A stretch of DNA of 63,818 nt, filler included, from Stramenopiles sp. TOSAG23-6 (GCA_900128565.1; 35 parts of 35 records of this genome joined end to end with filler, not necessarily neighbours in it), one strand, 5' to 3'. Shown: positions 3,693 to 63,818, counted from the first letter of the whole stretch. Notes: a model not told the origin generated them from the letters alone. A program made the numbers and translations.

Positions 3693-5141
3693 AAAAATAC
3701 CAAAAATACCAAAGTTCAAATTAGCCTATATATCGAGTGATTTCGGTGCACATACTGTTGGTAATTTATTTCATACTATTCCTTCGTATCATACACGAAA
3801 TAAAGATAAAAATTTTAAAACGTATACTTTTGCAGATAGTATCGATGATGGTTCATATTTTCGACAATTTATTCAATCGCACTCAGAGGAATTTACTGAC
3901 ATTTCAAGTTATTCTAACGGGGAGGTATTTCGTGTTCTCAAAGATATTCATGTTGTTATTGATCTCAATGGGCTTTCACGTGGAAGTAGGTCTGATGTCT
4001 ATGCTGCATATATTGCACAACGTAACTCTAACCATAAAAACCATAAAAACCATAAAAAAAAAAAAAACGAAAAAAAAAAAAAAAAAAAAAAAAAAAAACG
4101 TAAAAACAATAGAAAAACAAAACATAAAAACACCTATTTTAGCTTCCTACTTAGGGTTTCCTTCCACTACTGGTGGTATTCATGATGTATTTATTACAGA
4201 TAAAATAGCATCTCCACCTGAAACATCAAATACTTTTGTTGAGAAATTAGTTTTTCTTCCAAATAGTTATGTACGTTTTCATTTCAATTTTGAATTTATT
4301 TTTTTTTTTATAAAAATTTTGTACCTAACAAATTTTAGTTTTTTTTTCTAAAATATTTTTTCACAATACATTTACCTACTTCATACAGAACATTACAAAA
4401 AGATGAAACAGCTCAGAAGCATCAAAAATGGACATCAATATTTCCAAAGAATAAAGTTATATTATGCTCATTTGGACAATTGTATAAATTTTCGCCCAGA
4501 GTATGTGACACGTGGGCTGGAATATTACGAGAAACATCAAATACAATTCTTTGGATGGTTCAGCACAAATCCATGACGAATAAGGCCGTAGAAAATTTGA
4601 AACTAGAACTATTATCTAGAGGTATAAGTAGACATCGGATATTTGTAACAGATTTGATACCTTTCGATGAACATTTAGACGCAAAACAGGTTTGTTCTTT
4701 GTCACTTGATACGTTTCCATATTCTGCACATAGCACCGCTGCTGATATGTCATGGGCAAGTGTACCTCATATTAGCATAACTGGTGAAATAACGCCTTCT
4801 CGTGTTGGAGCGAGTATCAATAAAAGCATGGGTTTGGATTATTTATTAGAAATGAGTAGTATGAAAGAATATTCAAATGTTGTCTTTCAATTGGTACAAA
4901 ACCAAGCACGAAATCTTCTTTCTTTTCATAATCGTAATTCTAATTCTAATCCTAATAATGAAACTTTCATGAATGATGTGTATCCATCTTCTATTTTGAA
5001 AGTATTGAAAAAACACCTGTATAAAATGCGCTTCAAGAAAGGTACAATATTGGATACCGAAACAACAGCAAAAAATCTGGAGAGAGCTGCTAAACTCTTG
5101 TGGGAAACACGAAATAATATGATTTTCAGCAAAGATGGAAT
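3693..5141 (+). CDS. O-GlcNAc transferase-like (GT41) catalytic region; frame broken in the poly-A tract at ~4055-4097
   Basis: LAYISSDFGAHTVG, VIDLNG, YLGFPSTTG, ITDKIASP, CSFGQLYKF, LSLDTFPYSAHSTAAD, SRVGAS. Confidence 0.85.
4271..4371 (+). mobile_element. Introner-like GT...AT intron (101 nt)
   Basis: tat|GTACGT...GTACCTAAC...ACAATACAT|tta; joins PNSY|LPTSY in frame with CSFGQLYKF. Confidence 0.85.
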
Positions 5142-5770
5142 GTACGTATTTTTTTTTACCAAACAAATGTACAATTGTTTTTTTTTCCTTACGAAATTTT
5201 GTACCTAACAAAACAAATCAATGTAAAATATATTTCTACACTATTTGTTTCCATCTCATATAGTTGTTGCACCACGTACAACTAATACATCATTTGATAA
5301 GAAAAATTAATATAATTGTTGCACCACGTACAACTAATACATCATTAGAATATATAATATAATGTGTAGAACGTGTCACAATTATATTAATTTTTCTTAT
5401 CAAATAAAATAAACGTAAAAAGGTAAAACAGAGTATGNNNNNNNNNNNNNNNNNNNNNNNNNNNNNNNNNNNNNNNNNNNNTTAATTAATTAANNNNNNN
5501 NNNNNNNNNNNNNNNNNNNNNNNNNNNNNNNNNNNNNAGGAGAAACTGATGAAAGAATAGCTTTACAAAGTAGCAAATTTTGTAGTGACTTAAAGTCAGA
5601 TTTTTACAACTGGTGTATTGTTCACCAGTCCAGGAGACCTCTCGTAGAGAACTTTTTAAAAGAGGGAAAAGGTTGAAATAAACCAAAAATGAGAAAGTTA
5701 AAAGGAGGATATTAAAATAATAAAAGTGAAGAATAAAATTTGTCAGTAGATAGCAGTACTGCGGTATAAC

Positions 5771-6145
5771 CTAAAGAGACATTTTTATCCAATTTGTAAA
5801 CAAACTATTTTTTGATGAAATTGTACACCGAAATCCTGAAAGCTTCCATTTACTGTAAGGAAAGTTACGATATGCCAGAACTTCGACATCTACAGGGAAA
5901 ACTTTACAGTTATCTTTTTTCCCATTAGAATAGTACCTACACAGTTCAACCTCTAGTAGACAAAACTGTTTCAGAAAACTGTTCTCAGTACTATTTACTA
6001 CATTTTTTTGTGTTGTTGTTTCTATTGAACGCATTATATTTTGATATCTGTCATAAGAAATTTCTTTCATTCTCACTGACTTAATTGTAGGAATTTTTGG
6101 GTCGCCAAAATTTTCATTTAATTCAACAATGATAAGACGTCTCAA
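5771..6145 (-). CDS. Hypothetical protein
   Basis: ORF only, no recognised motif. Confidence 0.35.
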   Translation of the reverse strand: MRRLIIVELNENFGDPKIPTIKSVRMKEISYDRYQNIMRSIETTTQKNVVNSTENSFLKQFCLLEVELCRYYSNGKKDNCKVFPVDVEVLAYRNFPYSKWKLSGFRCTISSKNSLFTNWIKMSL

Positions 6146-6959
6146 GTTTTTGAATGATCTCGATGAAGTATATAGAGTATAGGAGACAAAAGCATCAGCG
6201 ATAGTGAGATATCGAACAACTTGGAACCGCGAAAACCATGAAGAGACCGAACATTATTTATAGTAAAGGAAAGAGCACAAAGGCTTGACGCGGCAATTAT
6301 GGGAGCCACAAATGGACCGAGGAAAGTTGCAACACGCCCAGTAAAAAAAAGTAAACGTAGTCCAAGTCCAAAGGCAATAGCACCAAACGCTATTTGTAAG
6401 CCAATTTGAACATATGAAACATCAGTCTCTCTGGCAATTTTTTTTAAAGCTTTGTTTCATGAAGCTTTGTTTTGATTAGTGCGTTTTTTTGAAGAAGAGC
6501 AAAAAGGGCGTGAAATAAAGGGATAGGAATGTTTTCGTGAAATAAAGGACTGCGCGCTACAAGAATGAAAACATCTATAGGAAGGCCCTTTCAATAGGTT
6601 TGTATGAAGATATCTCGTAAAATCACTTATATTTCTAAGTGGGTGTAAGTCATCGGAACGGGCTATTGTGTGCCTATAAATAATTCGAAGCATGTGTGAC
6701 TTTTTCTTCTTATAAACTTAAATTTCTAGAAAAAAAACAGTCAGTCCAGTCCTAACTAAATCTTAAACCACTTACCTACAGAGAGTACTATATATCCATT
6801 TAACTATAGTATTTACGTTGTATCGTATTGCTGTACTGTCCTGGACAGCTTCTCAATGTTGCGTTGTGATATTCCTTAACATACGTTGGATTAGTTTGAG
6901 TATACAACCCTAATAGCTACAGCTAGCTGTAAAATCCATAGTATTACGCTTGAAAAAGA

Positions 6960-61542: not shown

Positions 61543-62008
61543 ATGTGTACGCGCATTGTAATGTCAGTTATCTTTATCGGACTATTCATTTATTCTGCTG
61601 AAGCAACTGTACTACATAAAATGCCAAAGGTTGTTGCAAAGCGTGCTGACGTACACCGGAACAAGATGAGGCATATGATGTATAAAAGCACGCCCAATCA
61701 CAACGATAATTTGACTCAAGACAGAAATATCGACACCAAAGAAAACTCCGCGAAAAACTCTGAACGTGTCCTACCTTTTGATAATTTCAGATTTAAGCAT
61801 GCTTCATCTTTACGGAGACCTCATGGAAACCAAGAAAAACAAGTTGATACAGATCAAAATGAGAAAAACGCTCCGGAAAAAAAAAACCTCGAAAAATCAA
61901 AGATGAGATTCATGGAAGTTAAGCACCCCTACCGACGGAGAAAACACCATCACCATCGCCGTCATCACCACGGACACCCCAGTATCGTTGCTGGGATTGG
62001 TACGGAGG
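61543..62008 (+). CDS. Putative secreted protein with a His-rich tract (3' partial)
   Basis: IVMSVIFIGLFIYSAEA signal; RFKH/RFME motifs. Confidence 0.6.
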
Positions 62009-62158
62009 NNNNNNNNNNNNNNNNNNNNNNNNNNNNNNNNNNNNNNNNNNNNTTAATTAATTAANNNNNNNNNNNNNNNNNNNNNNNNNNNNNNNNNNNN
62101 NNNNNNNNCAAAATTTCGTACGAAAAAAAATTCGAATTTGAAAAAAAATAAAACATAC

Positions 62159-63818
62159 ATGCAACCTATATATAGTTTCGAGAAGAAATGAATTATTGGA
62201 GTTGCGAGGAGCATATTCTACCGCCTTTCGAAAATGAGATAAACAAGATGATAGAGAAGAACCAAGTTTTCCTAAAGTTTTTCCAATCATAAAATGAATA
62301 TGAGAACGTCTTTCACAGTATTTAGACGATGGTTGATTATTCAAAAGTATTAGAGCTTTTTTGTATTGTTCCAAAGCCATTTTAGCAACATTGTAACAAT
62401 TTCCTCCAGTCAAATCTCCGGCATACTCATCAATTCTCAGAGGATTAGTTATTAAAGCCGAATTATTTGAACTTTCAAGACTTTCAAGATATCCTGATTC
62501 CTCTGCCGATTCGTTTGATTTATTAAGAGCATTTAGATGTAAATTTATAACTTTCATTGTAGTATCATACGTTTTCAAAATAGGTGACGTATTTGAACTT
62601 TGTAATCGACTATAAAGCAAATCACCNATAGTTTCGACCAATCTAGCGCACGAAATATTTCCTAATGCATCAAAAGCATTTTCAAATGTCCCAGCTTTCT
62701 CCGGATGATTAATACATTTTAATGCCATTTTGAAACAACGCATAGCACAATGCCAACTTTTTGTAGCTGTCCATGAACTATGTTGGAATTCAGAGACATC
62801 AAGCCCTTCAGGAATTTCAATGTATGTATTTTTATCATCAATATATTTTGAAAATAACAATGTATTTTTTGATCCTTTCATATTCTGCAAAGATTGAAAT
62901 ATTTTCTCCGTCGGTAGGTCTTTTATATTTACTTCATTAATGGATACCAAATACATGTATCGTGAAAAAATATTTTTTTTTTTTTGGTTCAAACAAAAAT
63001 CGTTAGATACAAAATTTTTTATGAAAAAAATAAATTTGAAATTCACGATGAAAANGTACATGCCTACTTTAATAACTTGATCAGTAATTTGTAGAGGTTC
63101 TTCACTAAATCCACTAACTAATGCACCATAGTGACACCCTTCATTACTAGTATACGCTGGTCTAAATGCTATGCCAATTGGACCTGCATCTACAATAACC
63201 GTTACACTATTATCTATACTATTTAATGCCAAAGGTTTTTCTGGGCAAAATTTTGAGTACATGTATTTTGGAAAAATATTTCAAAAAAAAATCTAAAAAG
63301 AATTGTTAGGTACGAAATTTCGTATGAAAAAAAATAAATTAGAAATTCGGATAAAACGTACATAATTTCACGATCTATACAGAAATGAAATATTTCTCGA
63401 GCACGGCAACCTGCTAAATACCAAGATTTATATCTATAGGGATTATACCTTATATCAAAATGGTATAGTAATTTAAGTTCTTCCAAAATACTTAAATAAT
63501 CTTGTAAAGACGTCAAATCCGAATTTTTTAGAGTAGGAAATCCTTTTTTGCTTGCAACAAGATTATATAAATCACAATGTGTTCTATATAATGACTTATT
63601 AAAACGATCACTCGAGCAATCACTTGATGACGAATCAACAAATTCTGGAACGAATTTATATTTATACATATCATACGTATCTCTATTTGTAACAGAAGCA
63701 TCAGACTCACTAGACGTAAAATATATACTTTTCCCACTACACAACCAGTCACCTACGGGATCTTCTGTACAAATTTCGTCACTTACGGAATCATCTGTAC
63801 AAATTTTCACTGTATCAT
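62159..63818 (-). CDS. CABIN1/Hir3-like TPR protein fragment with an inserted PDZ-like domain
   Basis: YHFDIRYNPYRYKSW, AMRCFKMAL, IHFMIGK...K, LETIYRLH (CABIN1-like); GPIGIAF...IKVGMYLVSINEVNI (PDZ-like). Confidence 0.6.
62955..63059 (-). mobile_element. Introner-like GT...AT intron (105 nt, in-frame, read through by the ORF track)
   Basis: ggc at|GTAC...CACGATACAT|g rebuilds IKVGMYLVSIN. Confidence 0.8.
63261..63361 (-). mobile_element. Introner-like GT...AT intron (101 nt)
   Basis: att at|GTACGT...GTACCTAAC...CCAAAATACAT|g tac joins two ORFs in frame. Confidence 0.85.

Follow-up and report, generated by a model that had tools for sequence, protein, structure and literature searches.

Putative transposon-derived introns with GU...AU boundaries at very high copy number in the draft genome of an uncultured marine protist

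Introners, which are intron families derived from transposons, have been described in Micromonas, Aureococcus, Chrysochromulina, dinoflagellates and other organisms (PMC9860276, PMC12130899). In a 63,818-nucleotide (nt) stretch of DNA from Stramenopiles sp. TOSAG23-6 (GCA_900128565.1), referred to throughout as the window, unrelated genes are interrupted by copies of one short repeat which resembles these families: the copies are numerous, near-identical and short, the host is a marine protist, and the element is bordered by imperfect short inverted ends and by what may be a direct repeat. In the Chrysochromulina Introners the 5' splice site lies in the element and the 3' site is co-opted from the target duplication (PMC9860276), and the repeat described here would likewise carry its own 5' site and find its 3' site in repeated target bases; as with Introners, insertion sites in one gene are empty in the orthologue of a relative. 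The difference concerns the last base, since the Introner families described there end in AG (or AC), whereas 28 of the 30 3' ends in the window are T-final.

Endings of this kind are known from other settings. Saccharomyces cerevisiae lacking Prp18 favours CAU and UAU among non-G 3' sites, with a dependence on strong poly(U) and a proposed U(-1):G(+1) pairing, and neither Prp18 nor Slu7 is universal among eukaryotes (PMC10711555). The mutant yeast and the present family share a U2-type GUAUGU, a UACUAAC-like branch site, U-tracts and CAU/UAU ends, but the non-YAG sites of yeast are minor alternatives that depend on the mutation, whereas here HAU would be constitutive, for a whole family and in a wild organism. 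In Physarum polycephalum GT-AT makes up 17% of 1,425 non-canonical introns, and 71% (1,014) of the 1,425 were classified as U12-type (10.1101/2020.10.12.336362); common to that organism and this one are GT-AT boundaries in numbers and the lineage-specific expansion of one intron class, while the Physarum 5' site is [G/A]TATC[C/T]TTT with a branch 10-12 nt from the end, in contrast with GTAYGT and 22-59 nt here. The introner elements of Amoebophrya (PMC7789003) and the nonconventional introns of euglenids (PMC4770533) are also repeated, break the GT-AG rule and are found in a marine protist, with inverted and direct repeats at their borders; unlike the present family, which has fixed GT/AT termini, canonical 5' and branch signals and no predicted conserved pairing of its ends, they have no fixed terminal dinucleotide and form an end-to-end hairpin of 8-20 nt. 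Finally, in the tunicate Fritillaria (PMC13326754) GT/AG has likewise been escaped while the U2-type machinery persists, although this concerns most introns there and they are diverse in sequence and boundaries, as opposed to one repeat family with one alternative 3' end beside GT-AG introns.

No description of a GT-AT Introner family was found in full-text searches of the literature. Introner surveys start from annotated introns, and that of 2025 admitted AG or AC as 3' sites, keeping families with unfamiliar ones only where RNA supported them (PMC12130899); an unannotated draft such as this one would have been missed. What would be new here is a GU...AU family of the Introner type, Introners themselves, rare U12-type GT-AT introns and the CAU/UAU sites of Prp18-less yeast being already known. 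The first-pass annotation of the window, made from the sequence alone, knew of no described GT-AT Introner family, a claim of novelty to be qualified by the precedents just given for GT-AT boundaries in Physarum and for CAU/UAU sites in yeast.

Copy number, anatomy and orientation of the family

The window is composed of 35 contigs of ~1.7-1.8 kb each with 34 linkers (N + TTAATTAATTAA + N) between them, and 3,368 of its bases are N and 60,450 are not. Its guanine-cytosine (GC) content per 2-kb interval is 21-43%, the standard genetic code leaves frames of 570-580 codons open, and the public runs matching the sequence are two small 2015 'organism A' runs together with seawater metagenomes and metatranscriptomes. 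The source is a fragmented draft of an AT-rich uncultured marine protist, the genome of which is widely sampled by the window.

The branch-like motif TACCTAAC occurs 37 times in the window compared with 1.07 occurrences expected by chance, a profile made from 11 complete copies gives 45 matches at E<0.01, and scanning for GTAYGT behind an open frame adds copies at 28771, 1895, 40070, 40543, 24164 and 49214. Altogether there are at least 50 copies of one ~75-220 nt element per 60,450 non-N bases, spread across the 35 unrelated contigs at a density of ~1 insert per 1.2 kb, such that nearly all gene-bearing contigs are affected; many contig breaks fall within a copy. The initial observation of an abundant AT-ending repeat interrupting unrelated genes is thereby confirmed. 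In public sequencing runs contig depth on the repeat is ~1e4-1e5 (DNA run) and 1e3-1e4 (RNA libraries), as against 2-5 on exons, a measure that is unfit to rank the parts of a gene and supports very high copy number only. A 22-mer of the element core matched no JGI metagenome contig, and a 17-mer of the element matched six viral contigs, all of them chance matches in coding sequence.

The consensus of the family reads (AT)^GTAYGTTTT, a variable A/T stretch, TTTTTTCGTACGAAATTTTGTACCTAAC, U-runs and (G)AAATATTTTTC(C/A)A(A/C)AATACAT^G, where a caret marks the boundary of the insert here and below. All 36 of the 5' ends compared begin with GTA, followed by T (19) or C (17) at +4, by G at +5 in 33 and by T at +6 in all 36, which bears out the GT start reported in the first pass, and the two letters directly before GT are AT in 26 of the 36 and others in ten. 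On the other side, 26 of the 30 ends are AT, as had been claimed, with two GT and two AG, the latter being CAG at the position homologous to CAT; position -3 is C in 22, T in seven and A in one, and the exon resumes with G in 21 of the 30. Written as HAU-type ends these amount to 20 CAU (two CGU counted in), seven UAU and one AAU, a spectrum that fits the pattern of yeast without Prp18.

A branch-like TA(C/T)CTAA(C/T) is located 22-59 nt from the end in 26 ends, and a 27th carries TTTCTAAT alone, at 68 nt. CTAAY is present in 27 of 29 ends, U-runs follow the motif, and AG is absent between the motif and the end in 19 of 27 copies. The element has imperfect short inverted ends (GTAT(G)TTTT / AAAATAC), and 26 of 36 copies have AT at either flank, this match being made across copies and not locus by locus. 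An end-to-end RNA hairpin was also considered and is supported neither by the consensus fold, which has -0.6 kcal/mol and only a 4-bp internal hairpin, nor by the single-copy z-scores (n=4), which range from -0.06 to -4.0.

With respect to their host genes, 50 of 57 flanks are in sense orientation, three are antisense and four are ties, and the sense orientation described in the first pass therefore stands. Such a bias is expected if only sense copies can be spliced, and it is unexpected under removal at the DNA level. Ordinary U2-type introns of the host, outside the family, have GTATGT and an ACTAAC ~40 nt from YAG (see Table 1 for examples, including the control in an Snf7 gene); their presence means that the host uses AG normally, and the layout of the family is that of these introns except for the last base. 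Out of the features that define a U2-type intron, the family possesses a GUAUGU-like 5' site and a CURAY branch with pyrimidines and, but for two of the 30 ends, lacks the 3' AG.

Boundary register and continuity of the interrupted genes

For the frame test, the ends of 20 complete copies were set by family homology, and the phase of the longest upstream frame was compared with that of the longest downstream frame after excision. Removal from GT to the last base joins the longest frames in 18 of the 20 (binomial p 2e-7, with 1/3 per copy), and in 17 of 19 if the T-ending copies are taken alone (binomial p 6e-7). The restored copies are in phases 0, 1 and 2, and the protein motifs which had been listed as rebuilt, GP[L]CHLC, IKVG[M]YLVSIN and [W]QKIFTGNCDD, are indeed rebuilt.

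At the sites where AT precedes GT, AT...AC and GT...AT cuts yield identical messenger RNA (mRNA). In five complete copies that restore the frame GT follows other letters, namely TT (19335, 47736), CT (39320), AG (59685) and GT (32749), and these copies permit GT...AT or GT...GT and exclude AT...AC. GT...AT is the sole predicted boundary register common to all copies, and it is this putative excision, and no other common register, that restores both the frames and the conserved protein sequence. Some members of the family take an AG acceptor (48455-48630, 41573-41464 and 24164-24300, or 24306).

Continuity at the protein level may be followed in UTP25, where exon 59391-59684 corresponds to Utp25_C positions 2-84, reaching residue 97 of 98, and exon 59906-60124 to positions 86-151, from residue 1, so that no residue would be lost or gained at the predicted junction 59684^59906. 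An alignment was made with 12 representatives (11 full-length here) out of a library of 1.84 billion proteins: GYSSSSQ^VSKARSDFF at this junction aligns gap-free with the 11 full-length homologues, e.g. SEYSSPKETTKARAQFF, and the 822-residue P0154 reads GYSSPAAVSRARSNFF there. Use of the one AG in the vicinity (59899-59900) would retain 5 extra nt and shift the reading out of frame. Across 58708^58824 a tryptophan codon is reassembled as T^GG, and its W takes the place that the W of TITWQDIFQGNCDD has in P0005 and P0154, the closest homologues. P0005 is the closest UTP25 relative in the library (66% identity over the query; gene on a metagenome scaffold) and P0154 is its cluster-mate with a full-length model. 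P0005 has a single 300-codon open reading frame (ORF) running through the sites that match 58536^58537, 58708^58824 and 59155^59156, and the DNA of this relative is therefore intron-free at three UTP25 sites, which points to a recent gain of the UTP25 introns in the one gene compared. The interval 59156-59388 (+) was excluded from the frame count as an assembly collapse, in which a UTP25 exon has been lost between two repeat copies, leaving an A/T run with two Ns; ~50 residues of P0154 (DTNFSRVRELN...) are absent within it.

Among searches for proteins that span a junction, that with UTP25 exon 2 gave two distant fragments and no near-identical protein and that with the Rav1 exon gave no protein of greater length, and the COG6 and 'MLO-like' exons gave no Pfam match across a junction. 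Among the gene names proposed in the first pass, OGT-like (GT41), UTP25 and ARM-repeat are upheld by Pfam, whereas MLO-like, ARMC6 and CABIN1-like are without a Pfam match.

The reading that we favour, and regard as fairly probable, is that of a transposon-derived (Introner-type) family of U2-like introns with GU...HAU boundaries and very high copy number, the AU being used by the spliceosome at the RNA level. An Introner-type DNA element, short and non-autonomous, would have spread to very high copy number, bringing with it a strong U2-type 5' splice site (GUAUGU/GUACGU), the branch motif UACCUAAC with U-runs and imperfect short terminal inverted repeats (GTAT...ATAC), and would usually have been inserted in a (C)AT^G target, leaving AT at both flanks. 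The major spliceosome would then cut before GU and after the downstream AU, restoring the message, with HAU (CAU, UAU or AAU, rarely CGU) serving as the 3' splice site in place of YAG. The AU of this site is probably the duplicated target dinucleotide, its last U may contact the first G within the catalytic centre by the pairing suggested for HAU in yeast without Prp18, and the host's check of the 3' splice site would be relaxed. To the wider proposition, that HAU is constitutive for the major spliceosome of this wild marine protist and that an AT-duplicating transposon has seeded thousands or more of GU...AU introns (~1 per kb of gene sequence) beside GU...AG ones, we lean only slightly. The original suggestion of a spliceosome that routinely accepts AU can be retained insofar as a mobile, sense-oriented intron family removed from GT to AT is indicated by frames, Pfam continuity and homologues; it was too broad, as YAG introns and AG-using copies coexist with this family.

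A number of points weigh against this reading. The AT flank may represent a target preference rather than a duplication, a caveat likewise stated for Introners (PMC9860276). Conservation at the last bases does not exceed that of the adjacent ones, which we attribute to the young age of the copies. AGs had been said to be absent or out of frame, and this is true of 44466-44562, which is without AG after the branch motif, and of 59899-59900, but two T-ending copies have in-frame alternatives a short way past the branch motif: in 4271-4371 an AG at 4337-4338 would add 11 codons, and in 2157-2051 an AG 30 nt before the end is also in frame. Two of the 20 complete copies (53560-53701 and 54377-54488) do not fit at the family-homologous end, the misfit of one base in the latter being perhaps a homopolymer or frameshift error or the result of an unseen exon, and the family-like copies 5142, 13171 and 47956, whose 3' ends are not settled by frames, were left out of the 20-copy count.

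The remaining points come from reads, for which contigs of the DNA run X3 and of the RNA-library runs X7, X9 and X11 were compared over a single locus, 62109-63818. No spliced joint was found across 62955-63059 or 63261-63361 in any of the four runs, under an exon cover that is thin and patchy with most bins empty, so that this absence tells neither for nor against splicing, and the joints listed on this locus link different repeat copies only. An X7 contig (record 19, 173 nt, two exon differences) covers intron position 62965 to exon position 63136 without a break, and an X9 contig (record 25) extends 6 nt into the copy at 62158; both may derive from unspliced RNA or DNA carry-over. As for the terminal bases, whose inspection in DNA reads the first-pass annotation had suggested, no alternative letter reaches 10% at them in X3, an independent seawater metagenome, which argues against a base-calling artefact. 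Loose ends of the contigs of other copies cluster at 62160/62161 and 63260/63261, the boundaries of the introns, in both DNA and RNA runs.

Alternative modes of removal

Among the alternatives, the one which survives best, though we consider it improbable, is that an altered minor (U12-type) spliceosome, of a kind known to tolerate non-AG 3' ends, takes the elements out. GT-AT is frequent among the non-canonical introns of Physarum, which are mostly U12-type and whose branch motif is TTTGA, with a matching change in U12 (10.1101/2020.10.12.336362). In the window TTTGA is found ~20 nt before the end in many copies, but a whole subfamily (4271, 45452, 47736, 62955) has no such motif. The 5' end GTATGTTTT matches the consensus GTATCCTTT at 7/9 bases, and TACCTAAC is similar to TCCTTAAC; however, the U12-type 5' site RTATCCTT, with its ATCC core, occurs in none of the 36 5' ends. 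The U12-type branch motif lies ~10-26 nt from the 3' end, whereas just one of the ends here with a TACCTAAC-type motif (22 nt) has it within 26 nt. Furthermore, the layout of the family is shared by the ordinary U2-type introns of the host.

A shade less probable is that these are AT...AC introns, with both boundaries lying two bases to the left and the known A-first, C-last pairing, for which GT...AT would be an equivalent notation. This is suggested by the 26 of 36 copies in which AT precedes GT, as the element ends in ...AC^AT and the mRNA would be the same, but the other ten have no AT upstream and the five complete ones among them still restore the frame. In addition, the shifted last two bases would vary (AC, AT, TT, AA), and the shifted 5' site would be AUGUAU without the +5 G, in contrast with the consensus GUAUGU of the GT register.

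Excision at the DNA level, similar to that of the internal eliminated sequences of ciliates, with the assembly representing the uncut germline form, is in our opinion very unlikely. In its favour, spliced RNA was not seen, an RNA-library contig retains its insert, and the AT direct repeat with short inverted ends recalls pointer-bounded, transposon-derived eliminated sequences. Nevertheless, neither the sense bias nor a conserved 5' hexamer and branch motif would be needed for DNA excision, AG is used at the same or a nearby place in some copies, the standard code leaves long ORFs open, and no X3 DNA contig joins the two sides of an insert, DNA cover of the junctions being absent in that run.

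Least likely of all is that the copies are retained, or removed at other AG sites, leaving genes disrupted or with small insertions and AT as merely the element's own end, since, although two copies have an in-frame AG and two of 20 do not fit, 19 of 27 copies have no AG past the branch motif, most genes would be inactivated by inserts at this density on almost all contigs that bear genes, the frame is exactly restored in 18 of 20 copies and two UTP25 junctions are residue-exact.

Individual copies, other features of the window and implications

The copies of the family and the ordinary introns are listed in Table 1.

Table 1. Family copies and ordinary introns in the window; codons are those of the open frames upstream + downstream of the insert
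Feature	Coordinates	Strand	Boundaries	Phase	Codons	Remarks
Complete copy, GT41 (OGT-like) gene	4271..4371	+	AT^GTACGT...CACAATACAT^T	0	182 + 278	GT41 Pfam matches on both exons; the linker region differs in length between GT41 proteins
Complete short copy	19262..19335	-	TT^GTACGT...GACATAT^T	0	257 + 284	No AT before GT
Complete copy	28354..28456	-	AT^GTATAT...AAAATACAT^G	2	107 + 89	
Complete copy	28641..28771	-	AT^GTACGT...CACAATACAT^T	1	169 + 99	Rebuilds GP[L]CHLC
Complete copy	39320..39422	+	CT^GTATGT...CACAATACAT^G	0	185 + 74	No AT before GT
Complete copy	39573..39667	+	Ends TTTAT	0	57 + 162	
Complete copy	40667..40781	-	Ends ATATAT	0	145 + 43	
Complete copy, ARM-repeat gene	44466..44562	-	Ends ATACAT	2	345 + 157	ARM Pfam matches
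Complete copy, same ARM gene	45452..45564	-		1	37 + 342	
Complete copy, Rav1-like gene	47736..47835	+	TT^GTACGT...AAATATAT^G	0	47 + 109	No AT before GT; 59-nt exon upstream is open in this joining frame only
Copy with CAG in place of CAT	48455..48630	+	CACAATACAG where others have CACAATACAT	0	118 + 20, up to next intron	In frame at G; ACAT 4 nt further is out of frame
Complete copy	48686..48870	+	Ends ATAAAT	1	23 + 140	Rebuilds W of WLPLWLRS; Rav1p_C Pfam match on downstream exon
Complete copy, UTP25	58709..58823	+		1	74 + 131	Rebuilds W before QKIFTGNCDD
Complete 221-nt copy, UTP25	59685..59905	+	AG^GTACGT...CAGTACAT^GTA	0	118 + 87	
Complete copy	62955..63059	-		2	73 + 108	Rebuilds IKVG[M]YLVSIN; carries TATCTAAC
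Complete copy	63261..63361	-		2	151 + 68	Best family-profile match (nhmmer E 2.8e-17)
COG6 copy, GT...GT	2051..2157	-	Ends ATACGT	0	169 + 68	
GT...GT copy	32659..32749	-	Ends ATTCGT	2	46 + 343	
Copy ending in AG	41464..41573	-	Ends TTTAG	0	81 + 95	In frame
Family-like copy needing AG	24164..24300	+	AG at 24300 or 24306, not ACAT at 24290	1	84/93 or 84/91 with AG; 84/5 with ACAT	
Copy with family-homologous end out of frame	53560..53701	+				AT two bases upstream (53699) in frame
Copy not joining longest frames	54377..54488	+		2 upstream, 1 downstream	237 upstream, 88 downstream	
Chimeric 'intron'	59156..59388	+	3' part ends ACAG			5' part of one copy and 3' part of another
3' part of copy cut at contig end	58486..58536	+	Ends AAAATACAT^T			
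3' partial copy	31206-31259	+				
3' partial copy	32870-32930	-				
3' partial copy	41969-42040	-				
3' partial copy	45613-45677	-				
3' partial copy	47595-47676	+				
3' partial copy	56489-56552	-				
5' part of copy cut at contig end	62109..62158	-	AT^GTATGT...			
5' partial copy	11078-11146	-				
5' partial copy	14743-14794	-				
5' partial copy	43960-44013	-				
5' partial copy	54652-54756	+				
5' partial copy	1847-1895	-				
Ordinary intron outside family, control, Snf7 gene	20437..20541	+	GTATGT...CACTAAC...TTACAG		58 + 205	In frame; Snf7 Pfam match
Ordinary intron outside family	7143-7260		GTAAGT...TATAG			

Following the copy at 54377-54488, exon 54489-54651 (+) encodes ...YHIEGPLFFASA, which we take to resemble the STAS domain of SulP transporters, with no Pfam match, while the long upstream frame, rich in K, N and Q, is in another phase. 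Some contigs have features of their own. On the contig 25725-27452 an ORF for a zinc-alcohol-dehydrogenase with a GC content of 0.61 (25726-26580 -) stands beside the 3' end of a eukaryotic large-subunit (LSU) rRNA (27038-27394 -); the rest of the window has 25-35% GC, and this contig may be chimeric or a contaminant. The intervals 40334-40391 and 41209-41266 of another contig are near-identical including their flanks (...TTTTCTCCGACAG), and one of them is situated at the edge of the contig, pointing to a redundant end of the assembly. A tRNA gene (38502-38574, -) is found at the very start of the contig that holds the gene named ARMC6 in the first-pass annotation; an Rfam scan of the window for structured RNAs matched only the LSU rRNA piece and one tRNA, and no small nuclear RNA.

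Two further kinds of repeat were encountered. A 63-nt tandem repeat is located within an ORF at 53042-53200 (...GTTGATAGTATAAACCCTAACCCTACTAATAATAGAAGAGAAAGAGAAATGAGTCTAGTCAGT...). The telomere-like dimer AACCCTAACCCTA occurs 12 times with at most one mismatch, compared with 0.06 expected, at 13314-13326 -, 25189 +, 28931 -, 28970 -, 32378 -, 34007-34025 +, 48266 +, 53053/53116/53179 + and 60460 +, mostly within open frames of unrelated genes and on the sense strand, where it would read NPNP. At 13290-13340 (-) a GT...AG insert of 32 nt contains it, with a 10-nt direct repeat, AATACTCAAG, on either side, and may represent an insertion footprint or a second very small element.

The terminal AG of introns removed by the major spliceosome is among the most constant signals of eukaryotic genes and is assumed by gene finders and spliced aligners, and the standard annotation of this lineage, as well as Introner surveys based on GT-AG, would miss most of its introns. 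If the wider proposition is true, the family would be without precedent, both as a U2-type intron class and as an Introner family, in being defined by a last base other than G, and it would provide a clean case of a splice site set by the target duplication of a transposon and not by selection for AG. It would also mean that U as the last base can be used constitutively by the catalytic centre, such relaxed fidelity being known so far from yeast mutants alone. In this organism the factors that proofread the 3' site (Prp18, Slu7, Prp22, U2AF35) would then be predicted to have been lost or altered naturally, and their roles in the choice of the 3' site would become testable.

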